DNA of 64,000 nt from Minisyncoccota bacterium (GTDB taxonomy: Bacteria > Patescibacteriota > Minisyncoccia > UBA6257 > GWB1-50-10). A program made the position numbers and the translations under genes. The notes beneath the pieces were generated by a model that ran no database searches, was not told where the DNA came from, and worked only from the letters and a program-made list of their open reading frames with translations. The stretch's first letter is position 1. The number at the start of each line of letters is the position of its first letter. The stretch lies in the NCBI GenBank assembly GCA_041917695.1, contig JAYRXE010000037.1, forward strand, positions 536,173 to 600,172, read 5' to 3'. Below, in pieces: positions 1,043 through 63,645 of this stretch.

Positions 1043-1051
1043 TTTGAAAAA

Positions 1052-1072: not shown

Positions 1073-1077
1073 TTTAT

Positions 1078-1566: not shown

Positions 1567-1570
1567 AAAT

Positions 1571-1595
1571 AAAAACCCCGTATAACGGGGTTTTT
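1571..1595 (-). terminator. intrinsic terminator downstream of lipoprotein gene
   Basis: aaaaaccccg-tataa-cggggttttt. Confidence 0.55.
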
Positions 1596-1617
1596 ATCTA
1601 TATTTCGCAAATGCAGA

Positions 1618-1950: not shown

Positions 1951-2051
1951 TTGTATTACCTCATTTAAGTTCTTAATTATTCTAATTTAATTATAGCAGT
2001 TATTTAGTATATTGTCAATATCCCATTTATTGACCCTGAATCGAGGGAAAT

Positions 2052-2081
2052 AAAAAACGCCAAGGTGAACCCAGGCGTTTC
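2052..2081 (-). terminator. intrinsic terminator downstream of bcp
   Basis: AACGCC...GGCGTT hairpin followed by U-run on minus strand. Confidence 0.45.
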
Positions 2082-2120
2082 TATCCCTACAGCAGAATAG
2101 CCCAATCTAGATATCCCTCT

Positions 2121-2567: not shown

Positions 2568-2574
2568 ACGGGAA

Positions 2575-3552: not shown

Positions 3553-3651
3553 AATAGGGGGTGGGGTTTTGAAGCCTCGGGATTATACCCGGAATGGCCC
3601 TTCCCGGCAATCAGAGGTATTTTTGCCCTTCACATGTATACTTAAAGCCAT

Positions 3652-7842: not shown

Positions 7843-7898
7843 GCATGCACCTCCGTTTTAAATTTATAAAATTTCCTGCCCTTATTGTAACAAAAAAA

Positions 7899-8813
7899 TC
7901 AGTCGAAAATCCCGATGCGATACGTATCTATCTCCCGCTGGTCCAGGTCGTAAAAATACTTTTTCTCCGCATGCAGTTTCGTGGCAAGCGCCACCCCGAC
8001 AAAGCGCCAATGCCACGGTTCAAACTGGTAATACGCGTTATTTTTCGGATACGAGAGCACGAATCCGTACCGATAGGCGTTTGCCGTGAGCCAGGCGTAC
8101 TCCGGCGTGTTTTCAAAGGAGACGCTGAGCGTCGGGCCTGTCCGTGTTGCCACGATATCGACGGCCGTGCCGAGCTGATGCTCGGAATACCCCTGGTCTG
8201 CCGAAAACTGGTTTGCCCCCGACCCGTATATGACACGATACCCCGTTTTTACCGCAGTCTGTTCGTCAAACGAGCGGTATGCGGAAACGACGGCAAGCGA
8301 GGACGAGGCCGCGCGGGACGCCTCGATCATGCGCGAAAGATAGGGTACGACGCGCGCATGCGCGTACATGTCCTTTCCGGCGATCGCTCCGTAACTCGGC
8401 GGCACCTGCGCAATCTCGCGCGGAACGTAATGCTCGTTCAAAAAATAAACTTTTGAATATTTTTCAAGAAGTTCCTTGTCGAGCGTTGAAAGTTTCTCGA
8501 GCGTTCCGACCGCGCTCGAAATCCCGCGGATTTGCGACTCAAACGCGTCATTTTTTGATTTTTCCTGCGTGAGCGACCGGGAAAGTCCCTCACTCTCCTC
8601 CTGGGATACAGCAAGGTCGTTTTGAAGCGATGCAATGCGTGCTTCGAATTCCGCCGTCTTCCGCGCCAATTCTTCCCGCGCTGCTCCGAGATCCGTTTCG
8701 GACCTTTCAAACTTGCCGGCTAAATCAAAGTATCGATACCCGCCGTACCCCGCAACGAAAAGCATCGCCAGGGCGATTGCGGGAAATATCATTGAAGACG
8801 TATGGATTTTCAC
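7899..8813 (-). CDS. D-alanyl-D-alanine carboxypeptidase, VanY/M15B family, with N-terminal TM and coiled coil
   Basis: VanY-type motifs SAYRSFDEQ, SEHQLGTAVD, EPWHWRF. Confidence 0.75.
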   Translation of the reverse strand: MKIHTSSMIFPAIALAMLFVAGYGGYRYFDLAGKFERSETDLGAAREELARKTAEFEARIASLQNDLAVSQEESEGLSRSLTQEKSKNDAFESQIRGISSAVGTLEKLSTLDKELLEKYSKVYFLNEHYVPREIAQVPPSYGAIAGKDMYAHARVVPYLSRMIEASRAASSSLAVVSAYRSFDEQTAVKTGYRVIYGSGANQFSADQGYSEHQLGTAVDIVATRTGPTLSVSFENTPEYAWLTANAYRYGFVLSYPKNNAYYQFEPWHWRFVGVALATKLHAEKKYFYDLDQREIDTYRIGIFD

Positions 8814-8827
8814 GGATGAGATTCCAA

Positions 8828-8904
8828 TGGGGTGGATGACGGGTCATGATCCCGCGACCTCCGCTTCCACAGAGCGGCGCTCTACCAACTGAGCTACATC
8901 CACC
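8828..8904 (-). tRNA. tRNA-His (GTG), encoded G-1 and 3' CCA
   Basis: Manual cloverleaf: extra 5' G pairs with C73; anticodon loop CUGUGGA; T-loop AUCAUGA is atypical; CCA encoded. Confidence 0.75.
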
Positions 8905-8979
8905 ATAGGCTCGAAGAAAACGCAGTTTTCTTCTTCCCCCAGGATAGTATGCTACAGGCTTTTTCTCAAGGAGAACGCT

Positions 8980-9396
8980 TTATTCCCCCAGCCACTCTTT
9001 CGGCAAAAATTTCCTCAACTTTTTCTTTTCCGCATCCTTTTTCTTCGCTTCCTGGAAGCGCTGTTCGGCGGATTTGGAGATGCGCGTCGGAATACGGCGC
9101 TTCGGCTTTATGAGTGCCTGTGCGATTGCTTCGCGAAGATGGTTAAGCGCGCGTTCCCGATTCGCTTCTTGCGAGCGTTCTTCGTCGCTTTCCGCTTCAA
9201 GTTCGTCCGCCTGCGTGATACGCGAAGCAAGTTTTTTCCGGAGACGCTCCTTGTCTTCCGGCGACACGAGGATTTTTTCGACCGGAAGCCACACTTGCAC
9301 TTTTGTCGAACGCTTGTTCACGTTTTGTCCGCCGGGACCGCCTGAGCGCGCGGATTTCATTCGCACATCGCGGTCGTCGAAGAGCTTCATCTTCAT
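8980..9396 (-). CDS. arfB: peptidyl-tRNA hydrolase ArfB (class I release-factor GGQ domain, alternative ribosome rescue factor)
   Basis: SGGPGGQNVNK GGQ motif plus basic C-terminal tail, ~138 aa. Confidence 0.75.
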   Translation of the reverse strand: MKMKLFDDRDVRMKSARSGGPGGQNVNKRSTKVQVWLPVEKILVSPEDKERLRKKLASRITQADELEAESDEERSQEANRERALNHLREAIAQALIKPKRRIPTRISKSAEQRFQEAKKKDAEKKKLRKFLPKEWLGE

Positions 9397-10062
9397 ATGA
9401 ATAGGATTATTCTAGAGTATAATGAACCGGTGAACAATTTGCTTGAATCGCTGGGCGCGCTTGCGCTCCAGAACCCCGAATGGACGAAATTCATCATCGG
9501 CATCGGCATCCTCATTCAGGGCGAGATAGCGATACTCCTCGCCATGTATCTCATCCTCGGAAACCACGTAAGCTTTTGGGGTTTCGTTGAGGCCTCTCTC
9601 CTCGGCCTCTTCATCGGCGAATTTCTCATCTATGTGGCGGGGAGAACGCTTCGCACCACCCGTTTCGGGTGGAAACTTTCCCGCAAGCTCAAAACGAACC
9701 GCCGGGTCCGGCTGTACAGCTACTACATCACCAAAAACCGTCTGCGGATGCTCTTCCTGGCGAAATTCCTGCCGGGGGTGAATACGCTTTCCATCCTTCT
9801 CCTCGGGTGGATGCGCGTAAAGGTCCCGCAATTTTTCCGCGTGTACATCCCCGCCGCCCTTTTTTGGTTTGTCTCCACGGCTTTCGTCGCCTATTCCATC
9901 GCCGCCGGGTTGCGCTTTCTCAAATCATCCCGGATATTCGAACAGATTGAATTCGTTATCGCCGGCCTTATCGTCGTCTTCTTTATCGCGGAATGGGGGG
10001 TTAAGAAACTCCTCGCGAAGTACGCCCCGACGGACCTGCCGCCCTTCGGCGACGAGAAATAA
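9397..10062 (+). CDS. DedA/SNARE-associated (VTT domain) membrane protein
   Basis: Polytopic membrane protein with DedA-like core; head-to-head with arfB with zero intergenic spacing. Confidence 0.55.
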   Translation: MNRIILEYNEPVNNLLESLGALALQNPEWTKFIIGIGILIQGEIAILLAMYLILGNHVSFWGFVEASLLGLFIGEFLIYVAGRTLRTTRFGWKLSRKLKTNRRVRLYSYYITKNRLRMLFLAKFLPGVNTLSILLLGWMRVKVPQFFRVYIPAALFWFVSTAFVAYSIAAGLRFLKSSRIFEQIEFVIAGLIVVFFIAEWGVKKLLAKYAPTDLPPFGDEK

Positions 10063-10102
10063 TTTTGACAGCTGTCCCCGACCTTCTATTATTTCGATAT
10101 AA

Positions 10103-10174
10103 CCCCTCGTAGCTTAATGGATAAAGCAGGGCTCTTCTAAGGCCTTGATGGGAGTTCGATTCTCTCCGAGGGGG
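10103..10174 (+). tRNA. tRNA-Arg (TCT)
   Basis: Manual fold: acceptor CCCCUCG/CGAGGGG, anticodon loop CUUCUAA, T-loop UUCGAUU; no encoded CCA. Confidence 0.65.
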
Positions 10175-10237
10175 CACGGGCAAAACGGGCCGCTTCATGT
10201 TGCGGAGCGGGAAAAAATAGTTAGAATAAACAAGTTC

Positions 10238-10309
10238 GCCGCGGTAGCTCAGTGGTAGAGCGCAGCCCTGAAGAGGCTGGCGTCGGGGGTCCGATTCCCT
10301 CCCGCGGCA
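10238..10309 (+). tRNA. tRNA-Phe (GAA)
   Basis: Acceptor GCCGCGG/CCGCGGC, D-arm GCUCAGUGGUAGAGC, anticodon loop CUGAAGA. Confidence 0.8.
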
Positions 10310-10356
10310 CAAGCAGTCATTGCCTTTGCGCATCTGTTTGCGGTAGTATGAATTGC

Positions 10357-10428
10357 CGCGGGGAGGAGTAACGGTTGCTCGTCAGGCTCATAACCTGAAG
10401 GTAGTAGGTTCAATTCCTACCCCCGCAA
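10357..10428 (+). tRNA. initiator tRNA-fMet (CAT)
   Basis: Near-identical to E. coli tRNAfMet architecture, including the C1:A72 mismatch (CGCGGGG...CCCCGCA A) and anticodon loop CUCAUAA. Confidence 0.8.
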
Positions 10429-10434
10429 CAAAAT

Positions 10435-10470
10435 ACAAAGTCCCACCTTATTGGTGGGGCTTTGTATTTG
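10435..10470 (+). terminator. intrinsic terminator after tRNA cluster
   Basis: caaagtcccacc-ttat-tggtggggctttg followed by tattt. Confidence 0.65.
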
Positions 10471-10480
10471 CAGGTAGCCC

Positions 10481-10520
10481 AAAACAAACGCCTAGTCGAA
10501 TGACTAGGTGTTTGTTTTCT
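10481..10520 (+). terminator. second tandem hairpin/terminator
   Basis: aacaaacgcctagtc-gaat-gactaggtgtttgtttt. Confidence 0.5.
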
Positions 10521-10528
10521 GGTGCGAG

Positions 10529-11161
10529 TTAGGAGGCTATGTTAGAAGCGTTTTTCACAGATCTTCCCCAATATATTCGGGTAGCTACTAAACATAAACT
10601 AGCATTTGCAAAGATGAGATAGATTTGAAAAGCTGAATTTTCTATATTCCAAACCGGAATAGCCGGTATGATTATTATTGCGCCAACCAAACTTACAAAA
10701 TAGGAATAAACCGTTTCAGTTTCAGGGTAGCTCCACGCTTTAACAAGCGTGGGAACAGTTGCCAATAAGTCAGCAAGGGCGGCGAAAAGAATTGCGGATA
10801 ATGGGGAATCCGCTACAAGCCAGGAGATAATTGCAACAATTGAAAACGCTCCGCAGAGGTAATCAAATCGCCCAATTTTCCAATAGCTTTTGCGTAAGAA
10901 AAGCGCCGTAATAAAAATGACCAATGGTCCGAAGCCAGACATAAATATGCGTACGGATGCCCATCCATCCGCATGAGAAGAAAGTGCCGCCCCGAAAGCA
11001 ATCATAGGAACAGCGCCCCACAACCCCCAGGTAACCAAATTCGGCTTGGTCTTCCCTTGAAACATATCGCGAAGATATGCAAAAAGGCCGGTAAAGCCTA
11101 TTACGACCGATACTATTACGAGCCAGTGGGCAATGGATATCCCCCAAAATAGTTCATCCAT
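10529..11161 (-). CDS. polytopic membrane protein, unknown function
   Basis: 6+ predicted TM helices; AT-rich composition relative to flanks. Confidence 0.5.
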   Translation of the reverse strand: MDELFWGISIAHWLVIVSVVIGFTGLFAYLRDMFQGKTKPNLVTWGLWGAVPMIAFGAALSSHADGWASVRIFMSGFGPLVIFITALFLRKSYWKIGRFDYLCGAFSIVAIISWLVADSPLSAILFAALADLLATVPTLVKAWSYPETETVYSYFVSLVGAIIIIPAIPVWNIENSAFQIYLIFANASLCLVATRIYWGRSVKNASNIAS

Positions 11162-11231
11162 ATGAGTTATTTAACATTACCACAGCTCACGCCCGGCAGA
11201 GGTGTGATTTTTTTGTTTAGATAAAACTTTG

Positions 11232-11305
11232 CGCAGCGGACGGGACTTGAACCCGCGATCTCCGCCGTGACAGGGCGGCGCTTTAACCAGCTAAGCTACC
11301 GCTGC
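11232..11305 (-). tRNA. tRNA-Asp (GTC)
   Basis: Acceptor GCAGCGG/CCGCUGC, anticodon loop CUGUCAC, T-loop UUCAAGU. Confidence 0.8.
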
Positions 11306-11343
11306 AATGCAGCAATTCTGCGCCCGGTTATTCTAACAATTTT

Positions 11344-11814
11344 CTACCCTTTTACAACTTCAGAGTCCCCGAAACGCTTGATAAGGACGACTCCCATTTT
11401 CGGCAATGCCACGAGTTCGGCGAGCGGTTGGAGCTCGACCTTCCCGATTGATTCGCGTGCGTGTATCACTTCCCCGTTCCCCGCGTACATCACCATGTGG
11501 CCGATATACATGTCCCGAGTCGGAAACAGGTTGTCGTTGTAGTGCCCCTGGGGACCGCGCATGAAAAGCAAATCGCCGGCTTCAAGGTTCGAATAATCTT
11601 CGAGCGGGATTATTTCCCTTCCCTGGATATCGGCGGCCTGCAAGATGGTGCTCCGCGGGAGTTGGATGTGGATTTGCTTGTACAGGTATTGGACGAACGA
11701 CGAGCAATCAAATTCATGGGGCGCCTTTTCGGGAGTGGTGCCATACACGTACGGCGTTCCGATAAGCGACTTGGCGATGGTAATGATGGTTTCTTTTTGT
11801 TGTTCCGTAAGCAT
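11344..11814 (-). CDS. NlpC/P60 (C40) family peptidoglycan endopeptidase
   Basis: Catalytic Cys context HEFDCSSFVQYLY with downstream His; start may be 11856 (MRPSS) or 11814 (MLTEQQ). Confidence 0.7.
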   Translation of the reverse strand: MLTEQQKETIITIAKSLIGTPYVYGTTPEKAPHEFDCSSFVQYLYKQIHIQLPRSTILQAADIQGREIIPLEDYSNLEAGDLLFMRGPQGHYNDNLFPTRDMYIGHMVMYAGNGEVIHARESIGKVELQPLAELVALPKMGVVLIKRFGDSEVVKG

Positions 11815-11873
11815 AATGGGTTCCGCAGAGGCATTAAATGCGGATGACGGGCGCATTCACTCATCCGTATCCA

Positions 11874-11947
11874 GTAGCGGGGGCGGGGATCGAACCCGCG
11901 ACCTTAGCGTTATGAATGCTACGCTCTAACCATCTGAGCTACCCCGC
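11874..11947 (-). tRNA. tRNA with CAT anticodon (elongator Met or Ile2/lysidine)
   Basis: Acceptor GGCGGGG/CCCCGCU (G1-U72 wobble), anticodon loop UUCAUAA, T-loop UUCGAUC. Confidence 0.65.
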
Positions 11948-11994
11948 CGTACAAGAATGAATTGTACGGAGTTCGGCTAAAGTCGGCAAGCGAA

Positions 11995-13152
11995 TTATCG
12001 TACGTCCGCCTTAAACTGGCTCTTCGTCTCCTCGTAGAGCTTCGCCTGGAGCGCGTCCACTTCCTCGCTTCGCAAGGTGCGGTCATGGCTTCGATACACC
12101 ACCCGGAAGGTGTAGCTCGTCTTGCCTTCGCCGAACTTCTTCGGGTCGGCGTAGGTGTCGAGAAGCTCGACCTGCTCGATTAAATCGCCTCCGATGTCAC
12201 GGATGAGGTCGAAATAGTTATTTGGCTCGAAACCACTTGCAACCACGAAGGAAATGTCGCGGGTGATGGGCGGAAATTTGCTCACCTCCTTGAATTTGCT
12301 TCCTAAAACGAGCTGGGCTTTCACCCGTTCGTCCGTGGAGCGGAGGAGGCGGATGTCGGGAAGTTCCATGCTGATCATGGCGAGGCGTTCAAGGCCGAAT
12401 CCGAATGCCCAGCCGTTATAGCCTTCCAAGCCGAGTTTTTGCAATACTTCCGGGCGCGCCATTCCCCCGCCCAGCACCTCCAGCCATTCGCCGTCCTTTT
12501 GTATTTCCATCTCAAGCGACGGATCCGTGTACGGGAACGTGTCATGGTTGAACCGGAACACCGTGCTTCCGCCGAAGGTTGCCTTCGCGATCTTTCCCAA
12601 GATATCCTTCAAATCTTCGACGGTCACCGTCTTTTTTTCATTCGGCTCCAAGTAGAGGCCGTCCATCTGATGGAAGACGTTCAAGTGAAACCGGTCTATC
12701 TCGTCCTTGCGGTACACCTTGCCGTAGGAAAGGAGGCCGAGCGGTTCTTTCGCTTTTATCTTCGCCTGGGTCTCGGGAAGCTGGAGATAGTAGAGCCACA
12801 TCACGGTCGTGTGCGTGCGGAGAATATGCTCTGCATCCACGAAGTACGTGTCCGACGGCTTCCGAGCCGGATGGTCCGGCGGGAAGTTGAACAAATCGAA
12901 ACTTTCATCCGCGCGGACGATCTCCGGGGATTCCACATGGTCGAAATTCGAAAGCTCGTCTATTTTCCTGATGCGCGAAACAAGCTCCCGAATGGGGCTC
13001 CCCTCCTCCCGCGTGAGGTCGGAAAGGGAAAGAAAGCGCGCAAGGCGCATTTTATCGGGGTCCTGTGAGGTTTCCACCTCTTTCCGGAGGCCGTCTTCCT
13101 TCGGATTCGTTACGACCCGGTCTATTACGTGCGAGTTTTCGAAAAGCGGCAT
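11995..13152 (-). CDS. pheS: phenylalanine--tRNA ligase, PheS-type catalytic core fused to a C-terminal FDX-ACB anticodon-binding domain (monomeric, mitochondrial-like architecture)
   Basis: Class II motifs FPPDHPARKPSDTYFV and GFGLERLAMI; ~100 extra C-terminal residues DISFVVASGFEP...GEGKTSYTFRVVYRSHDRTLRSEEVDA matching the FDX-ACB fold. Confidence 0.75.
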   Translation of the reverse strand: MPLFENSHVIDRVVTNPKEDGLRKEVETSQDPDKMRLARFLSLSDLTREEGSPIRELVSRIRKIDELSNFDHVESPEIVRADESFDLFNFPPDHPARKPSDTYFVDAEHILRTHTTVMWLYYLQLPETQAKIKAKEPLGLLSYGKVYRKDEIDRFHLNVFHQMDGLYLEPNEKKTVTVEDLKDILGKIAKATFGGSTVFRFNHDTFPYTDPSLEMEIQKDGEWLEVLGGGMARPEVLQKLGLEGYNGWAFGFGLERLAMISMELPDIRLLRSTDERVKAQLVLGSKFKEVSKFPPITRDISFVVASGFEPNNYFDLIRDIGGDLIEQVELLDTYADPKKFGEGKTSYTFRVVYRSHDRTLRSEEVDALQAKLYEETKSQFKADVR

Positions 13153-13909: not shown

Positions 13910-14320
13910 TTAGTGGGGAACTACTTCGTCGGTATATACCACGCGTAATTTTCTTTTCTTCTTAATCAGCTCATCAACATCTTCTTCATTCAGTAAGAGA
14001 TATTCTTCGTGATTATCTACATATCCAACTTCATCTGATTTGTATGCTCTCTTTTTTTCTTCATTATAAATAAAAATCAATGAACGCGGTTTACACTCTT
14101 TTCCATCAATTGCGGGTGAGAGAAGCTCAACTGCCTTGTGATATGCTTCGATACTATCGAAAACTACTACTCTTTTTTCCCTTTCGATAGTCACAAAATA
14201 GATCAAATCTGTCACAACCTGAATAAGATACAAGGACCCGATTTTAAACCCTACCAAGTTTCTCCAAAGTGGAGGATAGTCCCGGGGGGCTTTTTTCATT
14301 TTATGATGCGGAATTTTCAT
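13910..14320 (-). CDS. hypothetical protein (AT-rich islet)
   Basis: ORF in low-GC segment; own promoter copy upstream; no recognisable domain. Confidence 0.4.
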   Translation of the reverse strand: MKIPHHKMKKAPRDYPPLWRNLVGFKIGSLYLIQVVTDLIYFVTIEREKRVVVFDSIEAYHKAVELLSPAIDGKECKPRSLIFIYNEEKKRAYKSDEVGYVDNHEEYLLLNEEDVDELIKKKRKLRVVYTDEVVPH

Positions 14321-14357
14321 TTCTCTCCTTTTTTTGTTATAAATTTATGCTGAAAAT

Positions 14358-14387
14358 AAAATACCACGCATTTGGGATATTAGTCAA
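14358..14387 (-). promoter_or_regulatory. sigma70-like promoter (TTGACT-N18-TATTTT, TG-extended), copy 1
   Basis: Shares ~25/30 nt with the copy at 14814-14843; read on minus strand. Confidence 0.5.
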
Positions 14388-14471
14388 GAAAATCTGAGTT
14401 TTAGATATCTTAAGCTAGACTTGAGGCGAGGAAATAAAAAGAAGGGCTTAGCCCTTCCTGAAAATAAGAAA

Positions 14472-14774
14472 TTAACACCCTCCTCCATCTGAGGTTAGCT
14501 TAAAATCACACGGACCTCCAAGAGAAATAAAGAAAGCGTCAAAATGATAAGTTCCATAAAAATAAATTTTCCCCCAACCCAATTTTTCGTAAGTGCTGGA
14601 AATTTCTTTTTTAATAGAGTCCGAAACATCTTTTAATTTGAAATCAAATAAATTAATTCGGATATTGTTTTTTGTAGGTTGAGGCTTTAATTTATTTTGA
14701 TTAAGAAAATTATTAATTTTCTCTTCTAAAACCTCGCTAGAAACTGCGGAATTGCTTAATTCATTTGTACTCAT
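14472..14774 (-). CDS. hypothetical protein (AT-rich islet)
   Basis: ORF in low-GC segment, preceded by the duplicated promoter. Confidence 0.4.
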   Translation of the reverse strand: MSTNELSNSAVSSEVLEEKINNFLNQNKLKPQPTKNNIRINLFDFKLKDVSDSIKKEISSTYEKLGWGKIYFYGTYHFDAFFISLGGPCDFKLTSDGGGC

Positions 14775-33956: not shown

Positions 33957-34859
33957 TTACTTCACAACCGTCATTTTCCTTGCTTCAACAAAATCTTTTG
34001 CTTCTAACCGGTAAAAGTAGGTTCCACTTGCCAAGTGTGAAGCATCAACGTCGGCTTCATAGCTTCCTTTTCCCATCTCTCCGTCAACGAGCGTCTGCAC
34101 TTCGCGCCCGGCGATGTCATATACCTTTAAGGATACATGGCTTCGTTCGGGAATCGTGAAGGCAATCTTCGTCTTTGGATTGAACGGATTCGGATAGTTT
34201 TGACTGAGAGAGAACTCTTTAGCCGTCTGGTTTTGATTCTGAATGCCGGTAAGGCCTCCTTCAAAATCATCTACTACTGCTTGTGGTTGCCAAAATTGGG
34301 CAAAGGTCCAATAATCCCATTTTATTTTGCAACGTATCGAATCATTGGCGGGGGTGCCATTGAAATACAAATCAAACTTTATGCGAATAGCGCTAACCAT
34401 AGCAGGAGGGTTTTGGCCACCGATTGGAATCAGTTCTACTCCCCATGTGTTGGTTATTTCGCCCACTCCAAGTTGGATTGGACCCACCTCACAAAAATTC
34501 ACTCCATCACCTGAAATATAAAATGTGGTTTTCACATATACGTTCCCAACATAGGGATCAAGTTGAACCAATTTTTCGTAGACAACGCATTGCAGGTAAC
34601 TACTTCTTGATATTGAAGTCTGAAGATCTTTAGTTACTTCAAAACTTCCCTGCTGGAATGCGCGCCCTTCAAAGCAAACGGATCTCTGGCCATAATAATG
34701 ATCAGATTCGGATGTCATTTTAATGAATCCGATGTTTCCGGTTGTTGAAGTTACATACATTCCGTTTATGCCTTCCCCTTCTACTTGCGGGTCGGCAAAC
34801 GTTTGGAACACTCCTATAAATAAGAGAGCTCCAAAAAGAAGAAAACTTAAGAATTTCAT
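33957..34859 (-). CDS. secreted protein with T9SS (Por) type-A C-terminal sorting domain
   Basis: C-terminus SQNYPNPFNPKTKIAFTIPERSHVSLKVYDIAGREVQTLVDGEMGKGSYEADVDASHLASGTYFYRLEAKDFVEARKMTVVK is a near-consensus Por_Secre_tail; signal peptide; AT-rich. Confidence 0.65.
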   Translation of the reverse strand: MKFLSFLLFGALLFIGVFQTFADPQVEGEGINGMYVTSTTGNIGFIKMTSESDHYYGQRSVCFEGRAFQQGSFEVTKDLQTSISRSSYLQCVVYEKLVQLDPYVGNVYVKTTFYISGDGVNFCEVGPIQLGVGEITNTWGVELIPIGGQNPPAMVSAIRIKFDLYFNGTPANDSIRCKIKWDYWTFAQFWQPQAVVDDFEGGLTGIQNQNQTAKEFSLSQNYPNPFNPKTKIAFTIPERSHVSLKVYDIAGREVQTLVDGEMGKGSYEADVDASHLASGTYFYRLEAKDFVEARKMTVVK

Positions 34860-35021
34860 TCGAAACTCTCCTTTCTGTATTTATTTTTTTATTAATTATT
34901 TCTATCTTTATTATACCACATCCGTATGTTTTTTGCAATACATCCGTGGCAACTTGTCAAGGGTCTCTACAGCAAAGACGCTTCTCCCCTCCTCAAAGTT
35001 TCCCTTGCTTTTGAAATCCAC

Positions 35022-35537
35022 TTAAAACCCGCGTTTTTCTCGTTTTTTCAGTATTTCCTGGGTTTTCTCCATTACCCGCTCGTACTCCTTAACAGTCGAA
35101 AGACCAGCTTGCTTCCTTCTTTTTTCTAATTCCTTCTTATTCTCCACGGGAGCTAACTCAATTTTCCCCTTCTTGTTTCTTCGAAATTGCGTGCCATAGA
35201 TTTGCTTTTTCCCCTTATGGACGCATATCCGGTCGGTAAGAAACGCCTCGTCAATTTGGTTGAATCCGCAGTGAAAGAGGCAATTTTCCTGGAGCTCGGT
35301 GTCCGTTTGATGCTGTATGAGCAGCCAGAATTGATGGAGCGCTTTCGCCCCTACCATCTTCTTTGTCGGATAGCCGTGTTTTTCAATGATGTGCCGGACC
35401 TTGAATGTATGGATGTTATCTACGGCATATATGAGCCAGTTAAGCGGTCCCTTGCCGGGAGTGGCGAGATTGCGGGTCCGTTGATCCGCTTCATACATTT
35501 CCGCTATCTCGTGCTGGATTTCTTTTTTCATTTTCAT
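35022..35537 (-). CDS. hypothetical protein
   Basis: Start at MKMKKEI (rc ATG 35535-35537) overlapping the upstream gene stop (ATGA); no recognised domain. Confidence 0.45.
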   Translation of the reverse strand: MKMKKEIQHEIAEMYEADQRTRNLATPGKGPLNWLIYAVDNIHTFKVRHIIEKHGYPTKKMVGAKALHQFWLLIQHQTDTELQENCLFHCGFNQIDEAFLTDRICVHKGKKQIYGTQFRRNKKGKIELAPVENKKELEKRRKQAGLSTVKEYERVMEKTQEILKKREKRGF

Positions 35538-36109
35538 AAAACTTTTTTGACGCCGGCAAGATAGACGGCATCCATATCGTGTTCCGCTTCCGGAATCTCG
35601 ATTGCCCGCCATCCCTTTCGCCTCCCGAGCTTTTCCGCCCGTCCTTTAAGCACGGGGTGTTCCTTACTGCCGTAGAGCAACGTCACTTTTTTTGCGAGCA
35701 AGGGCGCATAGTCAAGTTTTTTCATTTCTCGCAACTGAATTGCGGAAAAATCGGAAAGTTCTTTCTTTTTATACCAATTCAAATCTTCGCCTAAAACGGG
35801 GGGCAAGGAACAAAGTAGTACATGCGTGAAGCGAACCCTCCTTGCAGCCAGATACGCTTCAAGTGCGCCTATGGAAAATCCCATAATCGTATCACGAGGC
35901 ATTGCGCTTGAGGATACTTGATTGATGATTCCATGGATAATTTCGGATAAGGGTGCGGGCCCTCCGAGGGAATATTTTCTATTTCTTGTGAAAAGCCGGA
36001 GGGGTATATAAGTATATTTTTTTGAAATGATTGCAATAAGGTTCCGATAATTTTCATCGGTAATCCGATGGCCCCATCCAGGCAAGATATAGATGTTTGG
36101 CTTCATCAC
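35534..36109 (-). CDS. alpha/beta-hydrolase fold protein (GxSxG)
   Basis: GFSIGA nucleophile elbow; ~190 aa. Confidence 0.5.
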   Translation of the reverse strand: MMKPNIYILPGWGHRITDENYRNLIAIISKKYTYIPLRLFTRNRKYSLGGPAPLSEIIHGIINQVSSSAMPRDTIMGFSIGALEAYLAARRVRFTHVLLCSLPPVLGEDLNWYKKKELSDFSAIQLREMKKLDYAPLLAKKVTLLYGSKEHPVLKGRAEKLGRRKGWRAIEIPEAEHDMDAVYLAGVKKVL

Positions 36110-36184
36110 TAGCTAGTATTCATTATGCCCCTTTTCGAGGTTCCGGCTCAAAAAATCTAACGCCACCCTTACTACCTCAACAAG

Positions 36185-37456
36185 CTAAATTAATACTTCC
36201 CGTGCAAAAGAATTCTTTTTGACCGGACCCACCACCGCAAGATTCATATTTTTATTCGTAAAAAGAGCCTTTGCTACTGCATGAATTTCAGCGCGGGTGA
36301 CTTTTTTATATCGCTGAATTATCTCTTCAATCGGCTCAATTTTCCCCTCCATAATTTCCTGTTCTCCCGAAAAAAGAGCCCAGTCTTCCGAAGTTTCGTT
36401 TGCTATACTCTGCCTTGCAATACTATATTCCTTCGTTCTCACTAATTCCTCTGAAGAAACGCCATTCTGTACGATGTCTCGCAGTTCATTGCGGATGACT
36501 TTCAAAACTGCAGAAAATCTTTGATTTTCTATTCCTCCCGCAATCGCAAAACATCCATGATCGGACCCTAAAATAGTTGTCGCCCCTATGCTATACGCAG
36601 CCCCCATCTCCCCATAGATTTTCTGCCATAATCGGGAACTCTCGGTACCCCCCAAGATGCTTTCCAAAACACGCACGGCGGAGTGCCTCTTGTCCGAAAC
36701 GGGAAACGCTCGAAATCCAAGCACGAAATTAGTCTGATTCGATTTTTTTCGCAAAATGTTTTCCACGAATCCTTGCTGATTTTCATCAACTCTTTTTTTG
36801 GGAATGACTTCTTTCCCCTCTTTGCCGGCAAATGCCTTAACAATCTCCTTTTGAATCATCGTTTGCGAAACATTCCCAGCGATTGAAATAACGATTTGGC
36901 TAGGCAGGTAATACCGCGCATGGTACGCACGAAGGTCCGCGGCGGAAATTTTTTTGATGCTTGTCGGAGTGCCTAATATTCTTCTCCCCGCCGCTTCCTG
37001 CGGGTAAAGCGTACTGTTGAACCTATCCCAGACGACGGACTGAGGATCGTCTTCATTCATGTTAATTTCCTCAATTACCACGCCTTTTTCTTTCGCAACA
37101 TCTGCGGCGTTCAGCGATGGATTGCAAATCACATCAAAGAGAACTTTTGATGCCGACTGGAAATCCTGGTTCGCCGCTTTCACGTAATAATAGGTACACT
37201 CATTTGAAGTGAAAGCCTCTGAAGAAGTACCTAGCGACTCAAAAGCCTGAGAAATAGCTCGATGATTTGGGTACTTTTTCGTTCCTCGAAAACACATATG
37301 CTCGAGAAAATGAGAGATTCCATTTTCTTGCTCGTTTTCATATTCGCTCCCGACCCGAACGAAAACAGCCGTGGTTACGGTAGCGCTTTCCGGCAAATGC
37401 GTATGGAGGAGGGTGAGGCCGTTTTTTAGTTTTGCTTTAGTCGTTTTAGGCATCAC
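36185..37456 (-). CDS. M16 family zinc peptidase (pitrilysin-like)
   Basis: Inverted zinc motif HFLEHM and downstream Glu; 423 aa. Confidence 0.75.
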   Translation of the reverse strand: MMPKTTKAKLKNGLTLLHTHLPESATVTTAVFVRVGSEYENEQENGISHFLEHMCFRGTKKYPNHRAISQAFESLGTSSEAFTSNECTYYYVKAANQDFQSASKVLFDVICNPSLNAADVAKEKGVVIEEINMNEDDPQSVVWDRFNSTLYPQEAAGRRILGTPTSIKKISAADLRAYHARYYLPSQIVISIAGNVSQTMIQKEIVKAFAGKEGKEVIPKKRVDENQQGFVENILRKKSNQTNFVLGFRAFPVSDKRHSAVRVLESILGGTESSRLWQKIYGEMGAAYSIGATTILGSDHGCFAIAGGIENQRFSAVLKVIRNELRDIVQNGVSSEELVRTKEYSIARQSIANETSEDWALFSGEQEIMEGKIEPIEEIIQRYKKVTRAEIHAVAKALFTNKNMNLAVVGPVKKNSFAREVLI

Positions 37457-43380: not shown

Positions 43381-43983
43381 TTACGTGAGTCGTAAAGCGG
43401 TAGCTTTCTTTTTTCTTTTTTTCAGAAACTCGTGATAGAACAAACCAATCATCCAACAAGCGGCGATGAAGATAATTTCAAACGCGAGATAGATGCCAAG
43501 TTTCATTACAGACTTTTTTTCATAGATGCGTTGATGGATAATACCGTTTTCAAGCCATGGATCGCTTCTTTTTTCATGTTCAAGAAATAAGTAATTTGCA
43601 ACATCAGGGTATGAAACCCATGCCTTGAAGATATCCGGGCTATGTGGTTGCCTCCCCCATATTTGTCCGACCCGGTCCCCCGTAGCGATCCAAAGCGTCT
43701 CAAAAGGGCCTTCCTTCAAGAAATCCTCAAAGGAATTCAATGATATTTCGGAAATAGCATCCCCGTTTAATGCAAACACTTTGACGGACCGAGGATAACT
43801 ACTGGAGCCAATCTCTACGGCATTTTGGCTTGAAAATGGATCTTTCCCCAGCACTACCTCCTTGGCATCCACGTTAACCGTAACCGTTATTTCATCTTCC
43901 GGCGCCGTGAAAAAAAGGAAAAAAGTGCTTCCTGCCATGAGGCTGAAAACCACCGCAGAAATGATTATGGCTGCTTTCTTCAT
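43381..43983 (-). CDS. membrane protein (N- and C-terminal TM), unknown function
   Basis: 200-aa ORF with signal/TM segments. Confidence 0.45.
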   Translation of the reverse strand: MKKAAIIISAVVFSLMAGSTFFLFFTAPEDEITVTVNVDAKEVVLGKDPFSSQNAVEIGSSSYPRSVKVFALNGDAISEISLNSFEDFLKEGPFETLWIATGDRVGQIWGRQPHSPDIFKAWVSYPDVANYLFLEHEKRSDPWLENGIIHQRIYEKKSVMKLGIYLAFEIIFIAACWMIGLFYHEFLKKRKKKATALRLT

Positions 43984-51272: not shown

Positions 51273-51656
51273 ATGAAACTCACAGCAAGATTCGCTTTAA
51301 CCGCATTAGTATTAATCGCTTTATCATCCCCTAACCTGTTTTCACAGACTGTTGCTTCAAGTAACAAAGTTCCCAGCCTTGAACTCAAGGTTGAAAACGG
51401 AATTACCTACGTGCGCACAGGATACGAAAACGGCAGAATCGTTGTTCATAACGATAACGAAATGAACGATTTTGACAGGGAAATAAAGAATACAGTCCCG
51501 ATGCAGTGGGTCCAGCTTAACGGCAATGGCTATGCTTTCAAAGATGGCTATAAATTAAGCCTGGAAAACTCAGAAGGGAGATGGGTAGTGCAGAGAAACG
51601 GAAATGTACTCTGTACAAAAGTGCAAAGCGATCTCACAGCAGAAAAGAACAAGTAA
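51273..51656 (+). CDS. small secreted hypothetical protein (AT-rich islet)
   Basis: Signal peptide MKLTARFALTALVLIALSSPNLFSQ; own UUCG-loop terminator. Confidence 0.45.
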   Translation: MKLTARFALTALVLIALSSPNLFSQTVASSNKVPSLELKVENGITYVRTGYENGRIVVHNDNEMNDFDREIKNTVPMQWVQLNGNGYAFKDGYKLSLENSEGRWVVQRNGNVLCTKVQSDLTAEKNK

Positions 51657-56116: not shown

Positions 56117-56872
56117 ATGACCTATTCAGTGAAAAAACTCGCACGGCTCGCAAACGTAAGCGTCCGCACGCTCCATTACTACGACACCATCGGGCTTTTG
56201 ACCCCCAAACGCGTGGCGGGCAATAATTACCGCGAATACGGCGAAGCGGAACTTTTAAAGCTCCAGCAAATCCTTTTCTTCCGCGAGCTCGATTTTCCGC
56301 TCGAGGAAATCAAGCGCATCCTGAACGAACCCGGATTCGACATGCTCGCCGCCCTCCGCGACCAGAAACGGCTCATCGAGATGCGGAAAAACCGCCTCCT
56401 GAATCTCATGAAGACCATCGAGCGGACCATGAAGAAAATACAAAACGAAACGACTATGGAAGACAAAGAACTCTACGGCAATTTCTCCAAAGAGGAGATG
56501 GACGAGTACGCGCGCGAAGCGAAGGCCCGCTGGGGCACCACGGACGCGTACAAAGAGTCCCAGGAACGGACTAAGAACTGGACGAAGGAAGACTACGCGC
56601 GCGTAGCGAAGGCCGGCGACGAATTGATGAAAAAAATCGCGTCGCATATGGCGCTCGGCGCCGCTTCTCCCGAAGTGCAGGCGCTCATTGCCGAGCATTA
56701 CAATAGCCTCCGCGCCTTCTACGAGCCGAACTTGGAAATGTACGTCGGCCTCGCGAATATGTACGTGGACGATCCCCGCTTCCGCGCGACGTTCGAGCGG
56801 TACGACAAAGACCTGCCCGAATTCATGCGCGACGCGATGCTTGCGTACGTGGAGAAACAAAAAACCGGCTAA
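56117..56872 (+). CDS. MerR family transcriptional regulator (TipAL-like, C-terminal TipAS-type effector domain)
   Basis: N-terminal HTH YSVKKLARLANVSVRTLHYYDTIGLL; long C-terminal helical domain. Confidence 0.8.
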   Translation: MTYSVKKLARLANVSVRTLHYYDTIGLLTPKRVAGNNYREYGEAELLKLQQILFFRELDFPLEEIKRILNEPGFDMLAALRDQKRLIEMRKNRLLNLMKTIERTMKKIQNETTMEDKELYGNFSKEEMDEYAREAKARWGTTDAYKESQERTKNWTKEDYARVAKAGDELMKKIASHMALGAASPEVQALIAEHYNSLRAFYEPNLEMYVGLANMYVDDPRFRATFERYDKDLPEFMRDAMLAYVEKQKTG

Positions 56873-56886
56873 GAAGCCGGTTTTTA
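56863..56886. terminator. intrinsic terminator
   Basis: aaaccggc-taagaa-gccggttttt. Confidence 0.55.
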
Positions 56887-56946
56887 AAATCAAACGGCGC
56901 TCTAGGCTTCAAAAGCCTGCTAGCCGTGAGGTGCTCGGAAATAGCT

Positions 56947-57699
56947 TCAGTACTTCAGGAGTACATTCTCGATAAGGTCGAGAGCGAATTCGGTTGTCTT
57001 GTGAGACGAGAACACAATCCCTGAAGGGTGACCCGCACTATTGCGAACACCGAGCTTCTCGTCGAGAATCTTTCGCACGTCCTTCGATATGACATTTGCA
57101 CTACGCATGAGCTCTATAACACGCGACTCCTTCAATTCTGCGAAGTCATCGTAGGCAACAACGGGCTTCATCTTCTTGTCGGAATGTGCCGCAATTGCAG
57201 CATTAAATTCCGTGAGGTATTTGCCGAAAGTGTATTTCTGCAGGTGATCCATCGTCAGAACCCAAACCATGATGATCGTCGCACGATACGATTCCACTCG
57301 ATAGCAGCGTATCGCTTCTTCCAAGAAGTTGCGCTCCTGAGAGTCCGTGAGTTTTGGGACAAGATCCAGAAGTTGTTTTCCGACTTGTACCCGCTTTGGC
57401 TCTGAATCGACGGCAATACGGATTTCATCGAACACCGAACGTTCAAGCCGATAGCCTTTCGCGTGCTTGATGTAGCGGCCGCCTTTCTTGTTTACCTCTT
57501 CGGAGAGATAGACAGAGAGACGTGAGTAGGGACGGAGATCGAGTAGTTCCATGCACTCCTCGATATCGGCCACAGCCGCACTTTCGGCAGTTGGCTGAGT
57601 AAGCAGGTAGTAGGCAAGATAATCAACCTGTTTCGTTGCCGACCAACTAGCAAAGTCAGGGAAGCGTGTGACGAATAGATTTAATTCTTCGCGAGTCAT
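56947..57699 (-). CDS. hypothetical protein with C-terminal Rx4H (HEPN-like) motif; candidate toxin/abortive-infection effector
   Basis: C-terminal ...LGVRNSAGHPSGIVFSS... (R-x4-H); lower GC than flanks; third gene of an overlapping three-gene cassette. Confidence 0.45.
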   Translation of the reverse strand: MTREELNLFVTRFPDFASWSATKQVDYLAYYLLTQPTAESAAVADIEECMELLDLRPYSRLSVYLSEEVNKKGGRYIKHAKGYRLERSVFDEIRIAVDSEPKRVQVGKQLLDLVPKLTDSQERNFLEEAIRCYRVESYRATIIMVWVLTMDHLQKYTFGKYLTEFNAAIAAHSDKKMKPVVAYDDFAELKESRVIELMRSANVISKDVRKILDEKLGVRNSAGHPSGIVFSSHKTTEFALDLIENVLLKY

Positions 57700-58130
57700 G
57701 TGGTTTTCTTGCTAAACCCCTTCTGCACAATTTCTTCACCACTGCGCGTCAGCACCCATGCTTTGAGGCTGCTCTTCTTCTCTTTTTCCTCCATAAGGTG
57801 ACCTTTTGCCACGCACATGTTCGCTTTATCGTTGATATTGGCCGGAACGGGTTCTTTGGCAGCGCGAAATCCTTTTTCGAGGTCGGCTCCGTTGAAAGGA
57901 GTAACACCATCATGATGTTCGAGGTAATATCCGATCGCGAGAGTCATCTGCACCGCGTTTCCGGGAGCACGGTCGATGATGAATTCCTTTATTGACATCT
58001 TCTTTTCGGTTGGTCGTGTGATGACCGGCTCGGTTGATCGCGGGCTATCCTCCAGGCGAGCAACACGCTCACCCAAGCCCTCAACCGAGGAGAGAATTTC
58101 TTCGAGGATTTTCTTCATCTCTGGGTCCAT
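57696..58130 (-). CDS. hypothetical protein (cassette gene 2)
   Basis: 4-bp overlap with the downstream gene; no recognised domain. Confidence 0.4.
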   Translation of the reverse strand: MDPEMKKILEEILSSVEGLGERVARLEDSPRSTEPVITRPTEKKMSIKEFIIDRAPGNAVQMTLAIGYYLEHHDGVTPFNGADLEKGFRAAKEPVPANINDKANMCVAKGHLMEEKEKKSSLKAWVLTRSGEEIVQKGFSKKTT

Positions 58131-58132
58131 AA

Positions 58133-58537
58133 CTATGCGTTTTTTGTTACCCCTTTCTCGAGACGTTCAATGACCGCATCAACGTGCCGGTTAGGGATCT
58201 CGTAATTCTTTCCACTGCCCGCAAGGAAGCTGTCCTTCCTGAGCTTCTGAATGAGCGGATCGACGGTGCCTTTCGGCAATTCAGTCTTCTCATGCACTTC
58301 CTTACCGGAAGTACCTGCGTCTTCGATAACCCCCTCGGCCTTAAGGAGCTTTTTCACGAGGCAGTAAGCGAGAACTTTTTCCTCATTTTTGAGCGCCTTA
58401 CCCCCTTTAGTGTAGAACACACTGTCTCCCCCGCGCTGAATACTAAGTATCGGCTTGAGCGCATTTACGGCCCGCGTCGTATCGAATGCGCCGCCGTCCG
58501 TGTAAAGCTCCTCGAGCAATGATTTTTTGTCTGTCAT
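58133..58537 (-). CDS. hypothetical protein (cassette gene 1)
   Basis: 2-nt gap to the next gene; no recognised domain. Confidence 0.4.
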   Translation of the reverse strand: MTDKKSLLEELYTDGGAFDTTRAVNALKPILSIQRGGDSVFYTKGGKALKNEEKVLAYCLVKKLLKAEGVIEDAGTSGKEVHEKTELPKGTVDPLIQKLRKDSFLAGSGKNYEIPNRHVDAVIERLEKGVTKNA

Positions 58538-58934
58538 AACGTTACGTATTAGTAGATAAACGACTTTACTCCAAGTATAGAAAAGTGGAATTATATGTCA
58601 AGCGGGTTCGAGTCTTTCACTTATTCATAATTGATAATCCAGCAAATTTATATAGAAACAGAGCATATTGCCTTTTATTATGACAAGCGGAAATATACAT
58701 TTTTACAGTGTTATCCAAAATGTCCTTTATCTAAGCTATATTTTCTCCTTTTTTTACAAGTCAAAATGGAGTTTGAAAATATTCATAAAATTTCCACTGC
58801 ATATAGAGGCCCTATACTAGGTTTTGATAAATGAGTCCTAATTAAGCACCGACGTGAAAGACGTGCATTCTTCGAACATATATCGTCGGCTCGACCAAAG
58901 GAAGACCCAAGACTGAGCCTCGGGCCTTCCGATA

Positions 58935-59129
58935 AGAAAAATTCGTGCGGAGGCGGAAGGCAAGACGAGATTCGAACGCGCTCACTGCCGTTCGCTTTTG
59001 AAAACCCTCGGTTTTCAATACTTTCCTACACAGGGAACCGGGCGCGGTTCCCTGACACCTTCCACTGTTCGAATCCTCTGAACTGACACGGAATACAAAT
59101 ACCGGCATAAAGCCGGTATTTTTATTCAG
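58935..59129 (-). repeat. tRNA-Ser-associated hairpin element ending in a copy of the tRNA-Ser 3' end
   Basis: Direct repeat gcggaggcggaagg at 58937-58950 and 59129-59142, plus attcgaac in both; perfect hairpins 59021-59044 (10 bp) and 58988-59008 (8 bp); conserved spacers GGAAAGUA and AAGCGAA shared with the Glu-associated element; terminator hairpin 59101-59120. Confidence 0.5.
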
Positions 59130-59216
59130 CGGAGGCGGAAGGATTCGAACCTTCGGTCCGGTTCCCCGGACAACTTCTTAGCAGGAAGTTGCTTTCGACC
59201 GCTCAGCCACGCCTCC
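59130..59216 (-). tRNA. tRNA-Ser (GCT), long variable arm
   Basis: Acceptor GGAGGCG/CGCCUCC, anticodon loop CUGCUAA, variable arm UGUCCGGGGAACCGGACC, T-loop UUCGAAU. Confidence 0.8.
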
Positions 59217-59348
59217 GTTATCTTTAAACGTGGAAGAAAACGTTTCCTAACACGCACGAATAATCTTCGCTAATTTTCACTTCAAAATCAAATTTCCTTG
59301 AATTCATGCGGTTTTACTGGTATTGTAGGAAGGCTCTATTTAACTCTC

Positions 59349-60770
<1,422 letters not shown>

Positions 60771-60773
60771 AAC

Positions 60774-61118
60774 ATGCGTCCCCATAGAAATCTGAAAGTC
60801 GGGAGCGTCATCGAACACGAGCTTTCCATCCTCCTTGCGCGAGAATTCGAGCTTCCCGGGGTGCTTATTACTGTCACTTCCGTAGATGTGGCGACGGATT
60901 TGCTCCATGCCAAGGTGCGCGTCGCCATCATCCCCTACGACAAGGAGATCGAGGCGTACGAGGAGCTCCAAAAGAAACGGGCGCGCATTGAGCATGCCAT
61001 CTACAAAAAAATAAATATCCGCCCGTTCCCGAAATTCGAATTCCTTATTGATTCCCCCGCGGAAAAAGTGAAAATAAAGACCAGGGGGAAAAAGAAAGGT
61101 GAAGTAGTGAAATGGTAA
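60774..61118 (+). CDS. rbfA: ribosome-binding factor A
   Basis: ~114 aa KH-like protein immediately after infB (conserved synteny); KVGSVIEHELSILL pattern. Confidence 0.7.
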   Translation: MRPHRNLKVGSVIEHELSILLAREFELPGVLITVTSVDVATDLLHAKVRVAIIPYDKEIEAYEELQKKRARIEHAIYKKINIRPFPKFEFLIDSPAEKVKIKTRGKKKGEVVKW

Positions 61119-63294: not shown

Positions 63295-63645
63295 TCATGT
63301 GGCAATCACAAAAATTGAGTTTCCGAATATTTCTTTCTTTTTAATACGCAGCTTCCCGAGCGTTTTGTTGTTACCGCCGGAAAATGTGAAAATTGAGTCT
63401 AAGAGAGCATATACTTTATCTAATTTCCTTTGATTTCTTTTTGATTCAAGACCCTCAAAGCGGGCATCCATCCATCTTTTCTTTTTATTCTGGATTACGA
63501 ATTCGGCGTTAAAAGTCACCCTCTTCGACTCAAGATTTAGGTATCCTTCTCGTTTAATCCCGAGAAGTTTTTCTTTTGGGATATCAAGTATTTCCAGAAG
63601 ACTCAGTAATGCTATTTCTGCTTTCAAGAAAGTTTTTTTGTCCAT
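63295..63645 (-). CDS. hypothetical protein in AT-rich islet next to tRNA-Leu
   Basis: 116-aa Lys-rich ORF; composition differs from flanks. Confidence 0.35.
   Translation of the reverse strand: MDKKTFLKAEIALLSLLEILDIPKEKLLGIKREGYLNLESKRVTFNAEFVIQNKKKRWMDARFEGLESKRNQRKLDKVYALLDSIFTFSGGNNKTLGKLRIKKKEIFGNSIFVIAT

Follow-up and report, generated by a model that had tools for sequence, protein, structure and literature searches.

Genes and features of the locus

The stretch of DNA analyzed here, called the window throughout, comprises 64,000 nucleotides of a Minisyncoccota bacterium (assembly GCA_041917695.1, contig JAYRXE010000037.1, forward-strand positions 536,173 to 600,172), and all positions are counted from its first letter. 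On the minus strand of the window lie three tightly packed genes, which we call A, B, and C in the order in which they are read. Gene A (58133-58537; 134 amino acids) stands at the head and encodes a predicted winged-helix or helix-turn-helix (HTH) regulator; gene B (57696-58130; 144 amino acids) encodes a member of the partner family of C; and gene C (56947-57699; 250 amino acids) encodes a predicted RNase effector of the Pfam family PF27235 'AF_1680', in which a winged helix-turn-helix (wHTH) domain is followed by a HEPN domain. HEPN RNases recur as effectors in bacterial immunity and in toxin-antitoxin systems. We consider it somewhat better than an even bet that the locus is a toxin-antitoxin or abortive-infection type module, in which the HEPN protein C is regulated by winged-helix partners.

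The junction of A and B reads GCATAGTTATG (TAG-TT-ATG, a gap of 2 nt) and that of B and C reads ACATGACT (ATGA, an overlap of 4 bp)—both as described in the initial annotation, which had listed minus-strand open reading frames of 134, 144, and 250 amino acids with this spacing, in agreement with the coordinates and junction letters found here. About 35 nt upstream of the start codon of A there is a sigma-70-like promoter site (TTGACA-16 nt-TATACT; 58574-58601, minus strand) that agrees with 11 of the 12 consensus positions. At the other end, a terminator-like hairpin (56860-56885, minus strand), with an 11-bp stem and then a T run, sits between C and a convergent MerR/TipAS gene; both signals are consensus matches only. 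Given the 2-nt gap, the ATGA overlap, the promoter-like site, and the terminator-like hairpin, A-B-C look like one transcription unit.

By their conservation, A, B, and C are judged to be real genes, since each has many homologues under purifying selection: a large protein collection holds 178 homologues of C, 98 of B, and 53 of A, many of them on common contigs. A 679,953-bp NCBI contig and a Logan assembly also encode identical A, B, and C proteins with the same neighbours, and the closest genome copies carry the labels Patescibacteria or Minisyncoccia.

The HEPN protein

By precomputed Pfam matches, C belongs to PF27235 'AF_1680', a large uncharacterised family: the match is listed for the exact C protein and for 119 of 120 homologues, the exception being a fragment of 163 amino acids. 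We found no paper on AF_1680 or PF27235. Searches of A, B, and C against NCBIfam, PADLOC, and a copy of Pfam without PF27235 gave nothing above threshold, and C of the window had no match in that Pfam copy at E ≤ 1. The initial annotation had been unable to match the trio to a named defence system; the PADLOC and NCBIfam results agree with this, and the proteins match no housekeeping family either.

The structures of B and C discussed here are predictions. An AlphaFold2 model of C, made with 37 homologues, reaches a predicted local distance difference test (pLDDT) score of 93 and contains two domains. The N-terminal winged-helix domain (amino acids 1-98; 57406-57699, minus strand) is acidic, with an isoelectric point (pI) of about 5; it structurally matches winged-helix regulators and is predicted to be paralogous to the wHTH domain of B. 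The HEPN domain (amino acids 108-247; 56959-57378, minus strand) is all-helical in the model, with the four-helix up-and-down core by which the HEPN superfamily is recognized. Likenesses of the predicted structure include the HEPN domain of Sacsin (score 9.4), AbiA (9.0), the HepT toxin SO_3166 (8.8), and Csm6 (8.7), followed by RnlA and LsoA (about 7 each); a Foldseek search of the Protein Data Bank (PDB) listed the same proteins, none of them at a significant level.

Within the HEPN domain lies the predicted catalytic Rx4H motif, R219-N220-S-A-G-H224 (57028-57045, minus strand; LGVRNSAGHPSGIVFSS). In an alignment of 37 sequences R219 and H224 are invariant and N220 is nearly so (at least 90%); the other invariant polar residues are E122, E128, R139, T236, E237, D241, and N245, and W146 is invariant as well. 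The R-N-x3-H pattern is present in all 109 distinct full-length homologues of C.

The sub-threshold sequence matches of the C family are to HEPN families only. DUF4145 is matched by 9 of the 37 family members (best E 0.023, below threshold), and single members match RiboL-PSP (E 0.0032), Apea (E 0.028), and Swt1 HEPN (E 0.055), likewise below threshold. One PHROGs match falls below 0.001—phrog_27609, of unknown function, covers the whole HEPN domain of C at E 1.4e-7. Abi_2 (AbiD/AbiF) is not matched by C of the window, nor is it among the 25 families listed of the 32 that the 37 members match. A HEPN fold with an intact catalytic motif is thus well supported for C by the AlphaFold2 model, by the motif in 109 of 109 homologues, and by weak matches that point only to HEPN families, and the HEPN assignment that the initial annotation had made from the Rx4-6H motif at the end of the 250-residue protein holds up on all three counts. 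C itself is predicted to act as an RNase.

The winged-helix partners

The initial annotation had found no recognisable domain in the two small partners; both are now predicted to be winged-helix proteins. The predicted architecture of B consists of an acidic N-terminal helix (amino acids 3-27), a disordered linker (28-45), and a winged helix (47-137) that is basic and of the DNA-binding MarR/PadR/HrcA type. A profile built from B alone was searched against 5,769 open reading frames of related loci: in 66 proteins whose genes lie immediately upstream of a C homologue it matches the last ~100 residues (E to 3e-11), and in 20 C proteins it matches the first ~60 (E to 2e-6). Comparison of the B and C alignments with hhalign agrees weakly (E 1.4e-4 over 27 columns, probability 53%). 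On this evidence B, a wider family of partner proteins that we call B', and the N-terminal domain of C have one type of winged helix in common and are probably paralogous. We also looked for B-C fusions as a sign of interaction, but the longer family members carry unrelated N-terminal domains in place of B.

Protein A has a conserved N-terminal region of about 65 amino acids (LYTDGGxFD...IQRG) and an HTH around residues 70-115. Some of its 53 homologues are named 'biotin operon repressor' or 'winged helix-turn-helix domain-containing protein' at their source, and its weak HTH matches are to the MCM_C wHTH, HTH_IclR, and Lrp/AsnC-type domains. A is predicted to be the transcriptional regulator of the operon; as a third paralogue of the winged helix of B and C it was rejected, with an hhalign probability below 1%.

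Conserved core and operon forms

Related loci were gathered from representative genomes, metagenomes, and specific contigs, with genes called in them by simple open-reading-frame heuristics. A same-strand adjacent reading frame of 107-395 amino acids lies upstream of C in 106 of the 108 loci with at least 700 nt of upstream sequence; one of the two exceptions has a frameshifted C beside an intact partner, and the other has a partner whose start was missed (truncated). Partner and C are separated by a median of 4 nt; 33% of the pairs overlap, and 93% lie within 20 nt of each other. BLAST links 86 of the 89 distinct adjacent partners into a single family, to which B of the window belongs. In these loci, then, the conserved core is C together with one or more B-family partners encoded upstream and translationally coupled to it. 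Syntenic conservation of the whole trio, on which the defence interpretation in the initial annotation had been made to depend, was found: A-B-C recurs in close relatives and the pairing of B with C extends across the family, but the core is that pair and not the trio.

The minimal form of the operon is B'-C, with a B' of about 150-200 amino acids. A fuller form, A(131-134)-B(139-149)-B'(170-196)-C(247-250), with lengths in amino acids, is seen in Bradyrhizobium lablabi and in loci that we number L135, L139, L005, and L001, and some operons have up to five upstream genes. A-B-C without B' is found in the window, in L004 (82% identity), and in L140 (78%). A relative at 79% identity has all four genes, from which it would follow that B' was lost or gained recently, and the trio in the window is best read as a reduced form of A-B-B'-C. 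Where A is present it stands at the head of the operon in 6 of 7 loci (the exception, L105, has two copies of A), and it also leads three other four-gene operons. In a few family members the HEPN domain is retained behind an unrelated, swapped N-terminal domain.

Some loci show irregularities of their own. Frameshifts or stops interrupt the C homologue in L013, L020, and L043, where the upstream partner reading frame is intact; this could be inactivation of a toxin or sequencing error in metagenome-assembled genomes. In L046 (JGI 3300001380 contig) a near-perfect inverted duplication (38-4150 against 8578-12690) surrounds B'-C, and the serine recombinase that L047 has at the same place is missing; an assembly artefact could account for it, as could an inversion or deletion mediated by a recombinase.

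Distribution and mobility

The family is large and scattered. Searched against 1.84 billion cluster representatives (50% identity), the C profile matches 1,622 at E ≤ 1e-3 and 233 at E ≤ 1e-30. Matches in genomes, usually one per genome, come from Patescibacteria, Alpha- and Gammaproteobacteria, Nitrospirota, Bacteroidota, Planctomycetota, Acidobacteriota, and others, in a distribution that is patchy across phyla. Plasmid copies occur on the Ochrobactrum plasmid pLM19O1, where the module neighbours a DUF4238 gene, a Phd/VapC pair, an integrase, and IS66, and on Ralstonia solanacearum megaplasmids. At the DNA level the window resembles L004, the closest genome copy, within the cassette only (58538 to 56949), and the flanking genes differ. 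Across 111 non-redundant loci the flanking genes are very diverse: serine recombinases or integrases occur in about 8 loci, and a minority of flanks hold DNA methylases or restriction-modification components, GmrSD, Mrr, HEC-05, and DRT- or Gabija-like genes. These flanks were also searched for a constant additional partner (for example a methylase, a nucleotidyltransferase, or an ATPase), and none recurs.

The swapping of N-terminal domains described above is common among conflict-system effectors. Together with the patchy spread over phyla, the plasmid copies, the homology that ends at the cassette borders, and the adjacent recombinases and integrases, it argues that the module is accessory and horizontally mobile. 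Two relatives deserve mention for their surroundings. In L140, a patescibacterial-type contig, the region 7277-8428 holds an S24/LexA-like repressor, a ParB-N6_N4 methylase, a weak Sf6-type terminase match, and a SMODS/AGS_C (CBASS-type) gene; by gene content, this neighbourhood appears prophage-like or defence-related. In L139, a few genes from the module, 7252-7809 encodes PF27226 'AF_1845', another recent Pfam family of the AF_nnnn series.

The same observations bear on two other explanations. One is that the cassette is a plain addiction module, a type II-like toxin-antitoxin pair that stabilises its mobile elements and has no part in phage defence. The compact overlapping layout, with a DNA-binding-type partner upstream of a predicted nuclease, is what such a cassette would have, and both the Phd/VapC pair and integrase beside the pLM19O1 copy and the serine recombinases adjacent in several loci fit it; however, many chromosomal copies, that of the window included, have no visible element to stabilise, and some relatives lie among restriction-modification, CBASS-type, or DUF4238 genes. 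We regard it as rather unlikely in this strict form—many toxin-antitoxin modules also act in defence, so that it overlaps with the reading we prefer and differs from it only in the selective benefit.

The other explanation, which we think improbable, does away with conflict altogether: C would be a winged-helix regulator of transcription or of RNA, its HEPN-like domain serving to bind a ligand or partner and not to cut RNA, as in MtlR/YggD, with A and B as co-regulators in a small circuit. The presence of winged helices in all three proteins, a setting in which most flanking genes are ordinary, and the adjacency to infB in two Patescibacteria (described below) are what one would expect of a regulator. 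The conservation of C is not: R-N-x3-H in 109 of 109 homologues, with the other invariant polar residues, is the signature of a catalytic HEPN domain, and an acidic N-terminal domain (pI about 5) is unusual for a winged helix that binds DNA. Furthermore, no conserved target gene lies nearby, and a rare, patchy, cross-phylum spread with plasmid copies and adjacent recombinases speaks for a selfish or accessory module.

Comparison with known systems

By fold and motif, the predicted HEPN domain of C is nearest to the DUF4145-like branch of the HEPN superfamily, with which it shares the all-helical fold and the R-N-x3-H motif; the sequence matches are sub-threshold (best E 0.023). According to passages of a survey of the HEPN superfamily (Anantharaman et al. 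2013, PMC3710099), DUF4145 proteins are typically fused to, or encoded beside, defence components; wHTH-HEPN proteins with paralogous wHTH partners do not appear in the passages of that survey that were matched. The PF27235 entry, as far as can be checked, covers neither the partner genes nor the operon forms reported here.

Among HEPN toxins with a dedicated partner, the HEPN-MNT (HepT-MntA) systems come to mind, in which the antitoxin is a nucleotidyltransferase that AMPylates the toxin. Membership was rejected: A and B have no nucleotidyltransferase match, B being a wHTH and A an HTH protein, and C differs in its extra N-terminal domain. AbiF is reported to be under type III-like control by an RNA antitoxin, with tandem repeats upstream of the toxin; such control was rejected here, as there are no tandem repeats in 56800-59300. 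The layout of a generic type II toxin-antitoxin system—a small coupled operon, a DNA-binding-type protein upstream, and a mobile, patchy spread—is found here in every respect.

The best PADLOC match of C is PD-T7-3 (E 4e-4), limited to 34 residues at profile positions 12-45 of 432. DARNA/PD-T7-3 is a single tRNA anticodon nuclease of about 456 amino acids, with an N-terminal HEPN domain and a C-terminal Pds5-like region (about 300 amino acids), that forms dodecamers and is activated by single-stranded DNA bound by SSB (bioRxiv 10.64898/2026.02.22.705581). The motifs are alike in position, R117x4H122 in a HEPN domain of about 159 amino acids there and R112x4H117 in the domain numbering of C. 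Membership was nevertheless rejected, given that C has only 250 amino acids, carries its HEPN domain C-terminally after the wHTH, and has its partners encoded by separate genes. One further sequence match comes from the PDB: the C profile matches only 9wx2 'Dandelion-hepn' (a 163-residue chain), weakly (E 0.007) and over the first HEPN helices. A literature search for 'Dandelion' found no relevant publication, and the profiles of A and B match no 'Dandelion' chain.

The closest functional analogy for B and C is the type IX retron, which also combines a HEPN nuclease with a separate winged-helix (WH) protein. There, the WH protein wraps the HEPN nuclease and keeps it silent until a phage exonuclease destroys the multicopy single-stranded DNA (msDNA), and activation leads to rRNA and tRNA cleavage and abortive infection (bioRxiv 10.64898/2026.07.14.738597). 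The two differ in detail: the retron HEPN lacks the canonical Rx4-6H motif, which C has, and the retron WH protein has two extra HEPN-binding domains and is not paralogous to a domain of its nuclease, whereas B is predicted to be paralogous to the N-terminal domain of C. Membership in this system, which depends on a reverse transcriptase and msDNA, was rejected as well, with no RVT_1 gene within 8 kb and no retron RNA family found.

These comparisons frame a third explanation, in which the sign of control is reversed: C would be auto-inhibited alone, and its activation would fall to the B-family proteins (and A) as sensors or adaptors. An active C oligomer might, for instance, be nucleated by their basic winged helices once these have bound foreign nucleic acid or a phage protein. 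The winged helix of B is indeed basic and of a DNA-binding type (MarR/PadR/HrcA), and the weak PADLOC match is to the HEPN domain of DARNA, an enzyme activated by a nucleic-acid cue; moreover, one to five partner paralogues per operon suit diversifying sensors better than a single antitoxin, and B' is dispensable in that C is retained without it. We nonetheless give this account a minor share, above that of simple addiction: the tight translational coupling and strict co-occurrence are those expected of a stoichiometric inhibitor complex, and in the sole structural precedent for a HEPN nuclease with a separate winged-helix partner, the partner inhibits.

Overall, the locus is of a known kind, namely a small mobile operon whose HEPN effector is controlled by a partner; the type of partner, and the paralogy between partner and effector N-terminal domain, appear undescribed so far.

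Proposed mechanism

Returning to the toxin-antitoxin or abortive-infection reading that we prefer, the parts may work together as follows. Dimerisation is the general rule for activity in the HEPN superfamily, and C would be a metal-independent endoribonuclease that is active as a dimer joining two R-x4-H motifs. In the resting cell C would be inactive in a complex with B, which might silence it through pairing of the paralogous winged helices, or by laying its acidic N-terminal helix over the active-site cleft; suppression of the HEPN subunit by the winged-helix protein of type IX retrons serves as precedent. A, and probably B too, would bind the promoter region of the operon and set its expression. 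Once the balance is broken, C would be freed to cut cellular RNA (tRNA, rRNA, or mRNA) and growth would arrest; the trigger might be infection by a phage, loss of the element, or degradation of the partner with the linker. The toxicity of C, the neutralising role of B, the regulatory role of A, the trigger, and the RNA target are all steps that we infer.

Several observations weigh against this scheme. No model of PADLOC, NCBIfam, or the Pfam copy searched matches above threshold. B' is the most widespread partner, yet it is absent from the window—either B takes its place here, or the partners do not act as simple antitoxins. The partner and C have similar, mostly basic pI values, and so lack the charge complementarity typical of some toxin-antitoxin pairs. 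No relatives were found in the phage collections (IMG/VR, searched with tool-chosen patterns, and GenBank phages, searched by tblastn), and a phage origin was rejected on these results. The association with defence genes is only modest, in raw counts taken without a background, and most neighbours are ordinary. Lastly, two different Patescibacteria have the module beside infB-rbfA, possibly a sign of long vertical retention.

The infB-rbfA position itself is worth a closer look. In L052 and L053, from a second patescibacterial lineage, the module adjoins an infB-rbfA-tRNA-Cys-tRNA-Leu block as it does in the window (59298-61118); these loci differ in having partners of 232 and 195 amino acids, no tRNA-Ser, and an Avd-like 23S_rRNA_IVP gene between infB and rbfA. 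The coincidence fits either a common hotspot or long retention.

We also put forward, tentatively, a wider proposal: that the module represents a new HEPN immune or toxin family, found in many phyla, whose nuclease carries a winged helix and is kept under control by free-standing paralogues of it, one to five in number ('decoy subunits'), with a separate winged-helix regulator at the head of the operon. The decoy subunits would decide whether the HEPN dimer forms or reaches RNA. Each new mode of HEPN control has so far been informative—AMPylation, cyclic oligoadenylates, single-stranded DNA, and retron msDNA—and the PF27235 family, with about 1,600 clusters, has a distinctive control architecture in its variable number of paralogous winged-helix partners. 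Culturable hosts with the module include Bradyrhizobium lablabi, Ralstonia solanacearum (megaplasmids), Ochrobactrum (pLM19O1), Chitinophaga, Sphingomonas, Marinobacter, and Pontibacter. For the Patescibacteria, ultra-small organisms with few recognised defence systems, the locus would add a candidate defence or addiction module; should it turn out to be an ordinary toxin-antitoxin pair, the gain would be a correct annotation of PF27235 and its partners.

Surroundings of the operon in the window

The operon lies between the MerR/TipAS regulator (56117-56872, convergent with C) and a tRNA-Ser(gct) gene (59129-59216, minus strand), neighbours that are located as the initial annotation had stated. 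The tRNA-Ser is outside the operon, in the same orientation and 592 nt upstream of it. A 'tRNA cluster' was an overstatement: this one tRNA is close, but the other two are 2-4 kb off. The description of the cassette as AT-rich holds only relative to the adjacent genes. Its GC content is 0.50, against a window mean of 0.528 and 0.55-0.57 for the flanking genes, and its GC content at third codon positions (GC3) is 0.55-0.60, against 0.70-0.75 for adjacent genes; the 71 long open reading frames of the window have a GC3 of 0.606 +/- 0.112, however, and the cassette is within 0.5 standard deviations of them. The sole truly AT-rich part is the spacer of 591 nt between the operon and tRNA-Ser (GC 0.40). 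An RNA antitoxin or other noncoding RNA was considered for this spacer and rejected: no tandem repeats were seen (56800-59300), Rfam gave no match there, the tRNA being the sole match around the locus, and there is no convincing small open reading frame. A terminator-like hairpin follows directly after tRNA-Ser (59091-59127, minus strand).

The spacer also contains a 14-nt exact copy of the 3' end of tRNA-Ser (CCTTCCGCCTCCGC; 58947-58960, minus strand), preceded by a degenerate T-arm-like stretch (GTTCGAATC). Located between tRNA and operon, 182 nt from the former, the copy does not flank the operon; no further copy of the tRNA-Ser 3' end was found in the window. It is possibly the scar of an old integration or excision at tRNA-Ser. 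Repeats of att type bracketing the cassette were rejected, the single tRNA 3'-end copy being upstream of the operon, and with no integrase found near the cassette and no flanking tRNA 3'-end repeats the locus does not qualify as a tRNA-targeted genomic island. The suggestion of a tRNA-proximal accessory island therefore fares unevenly: the GC and tRNA evidence for it is weak here, but relatives adjoin recombinases, prophage-like genes, and defence genes.

Of 72 loci, 6 have a co-oriented tRNA no more than 800 nt upstream of the operon head; the expectation, counting tRNAs in both orientations, is about 2. These six—L004, L010, L011, L014, L050, and the window—have distances of 5-592 nt and involve Ser-gct (the window), Ser-gga, Glu-ctc, and Gln-ctg (three times), which hints at past integration at tRNA genes. 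Elsewhere in the window, several blocks of open reading frames have much lower GC and GC3 (0.24-0.53) than the cassette (13910-14774, 33957-37456, 10529-11161, 43381-43983, 51273-51656, and 63295-63645), and by composition these blocks are stronger candidates for foreign DNA than the cassette itself.

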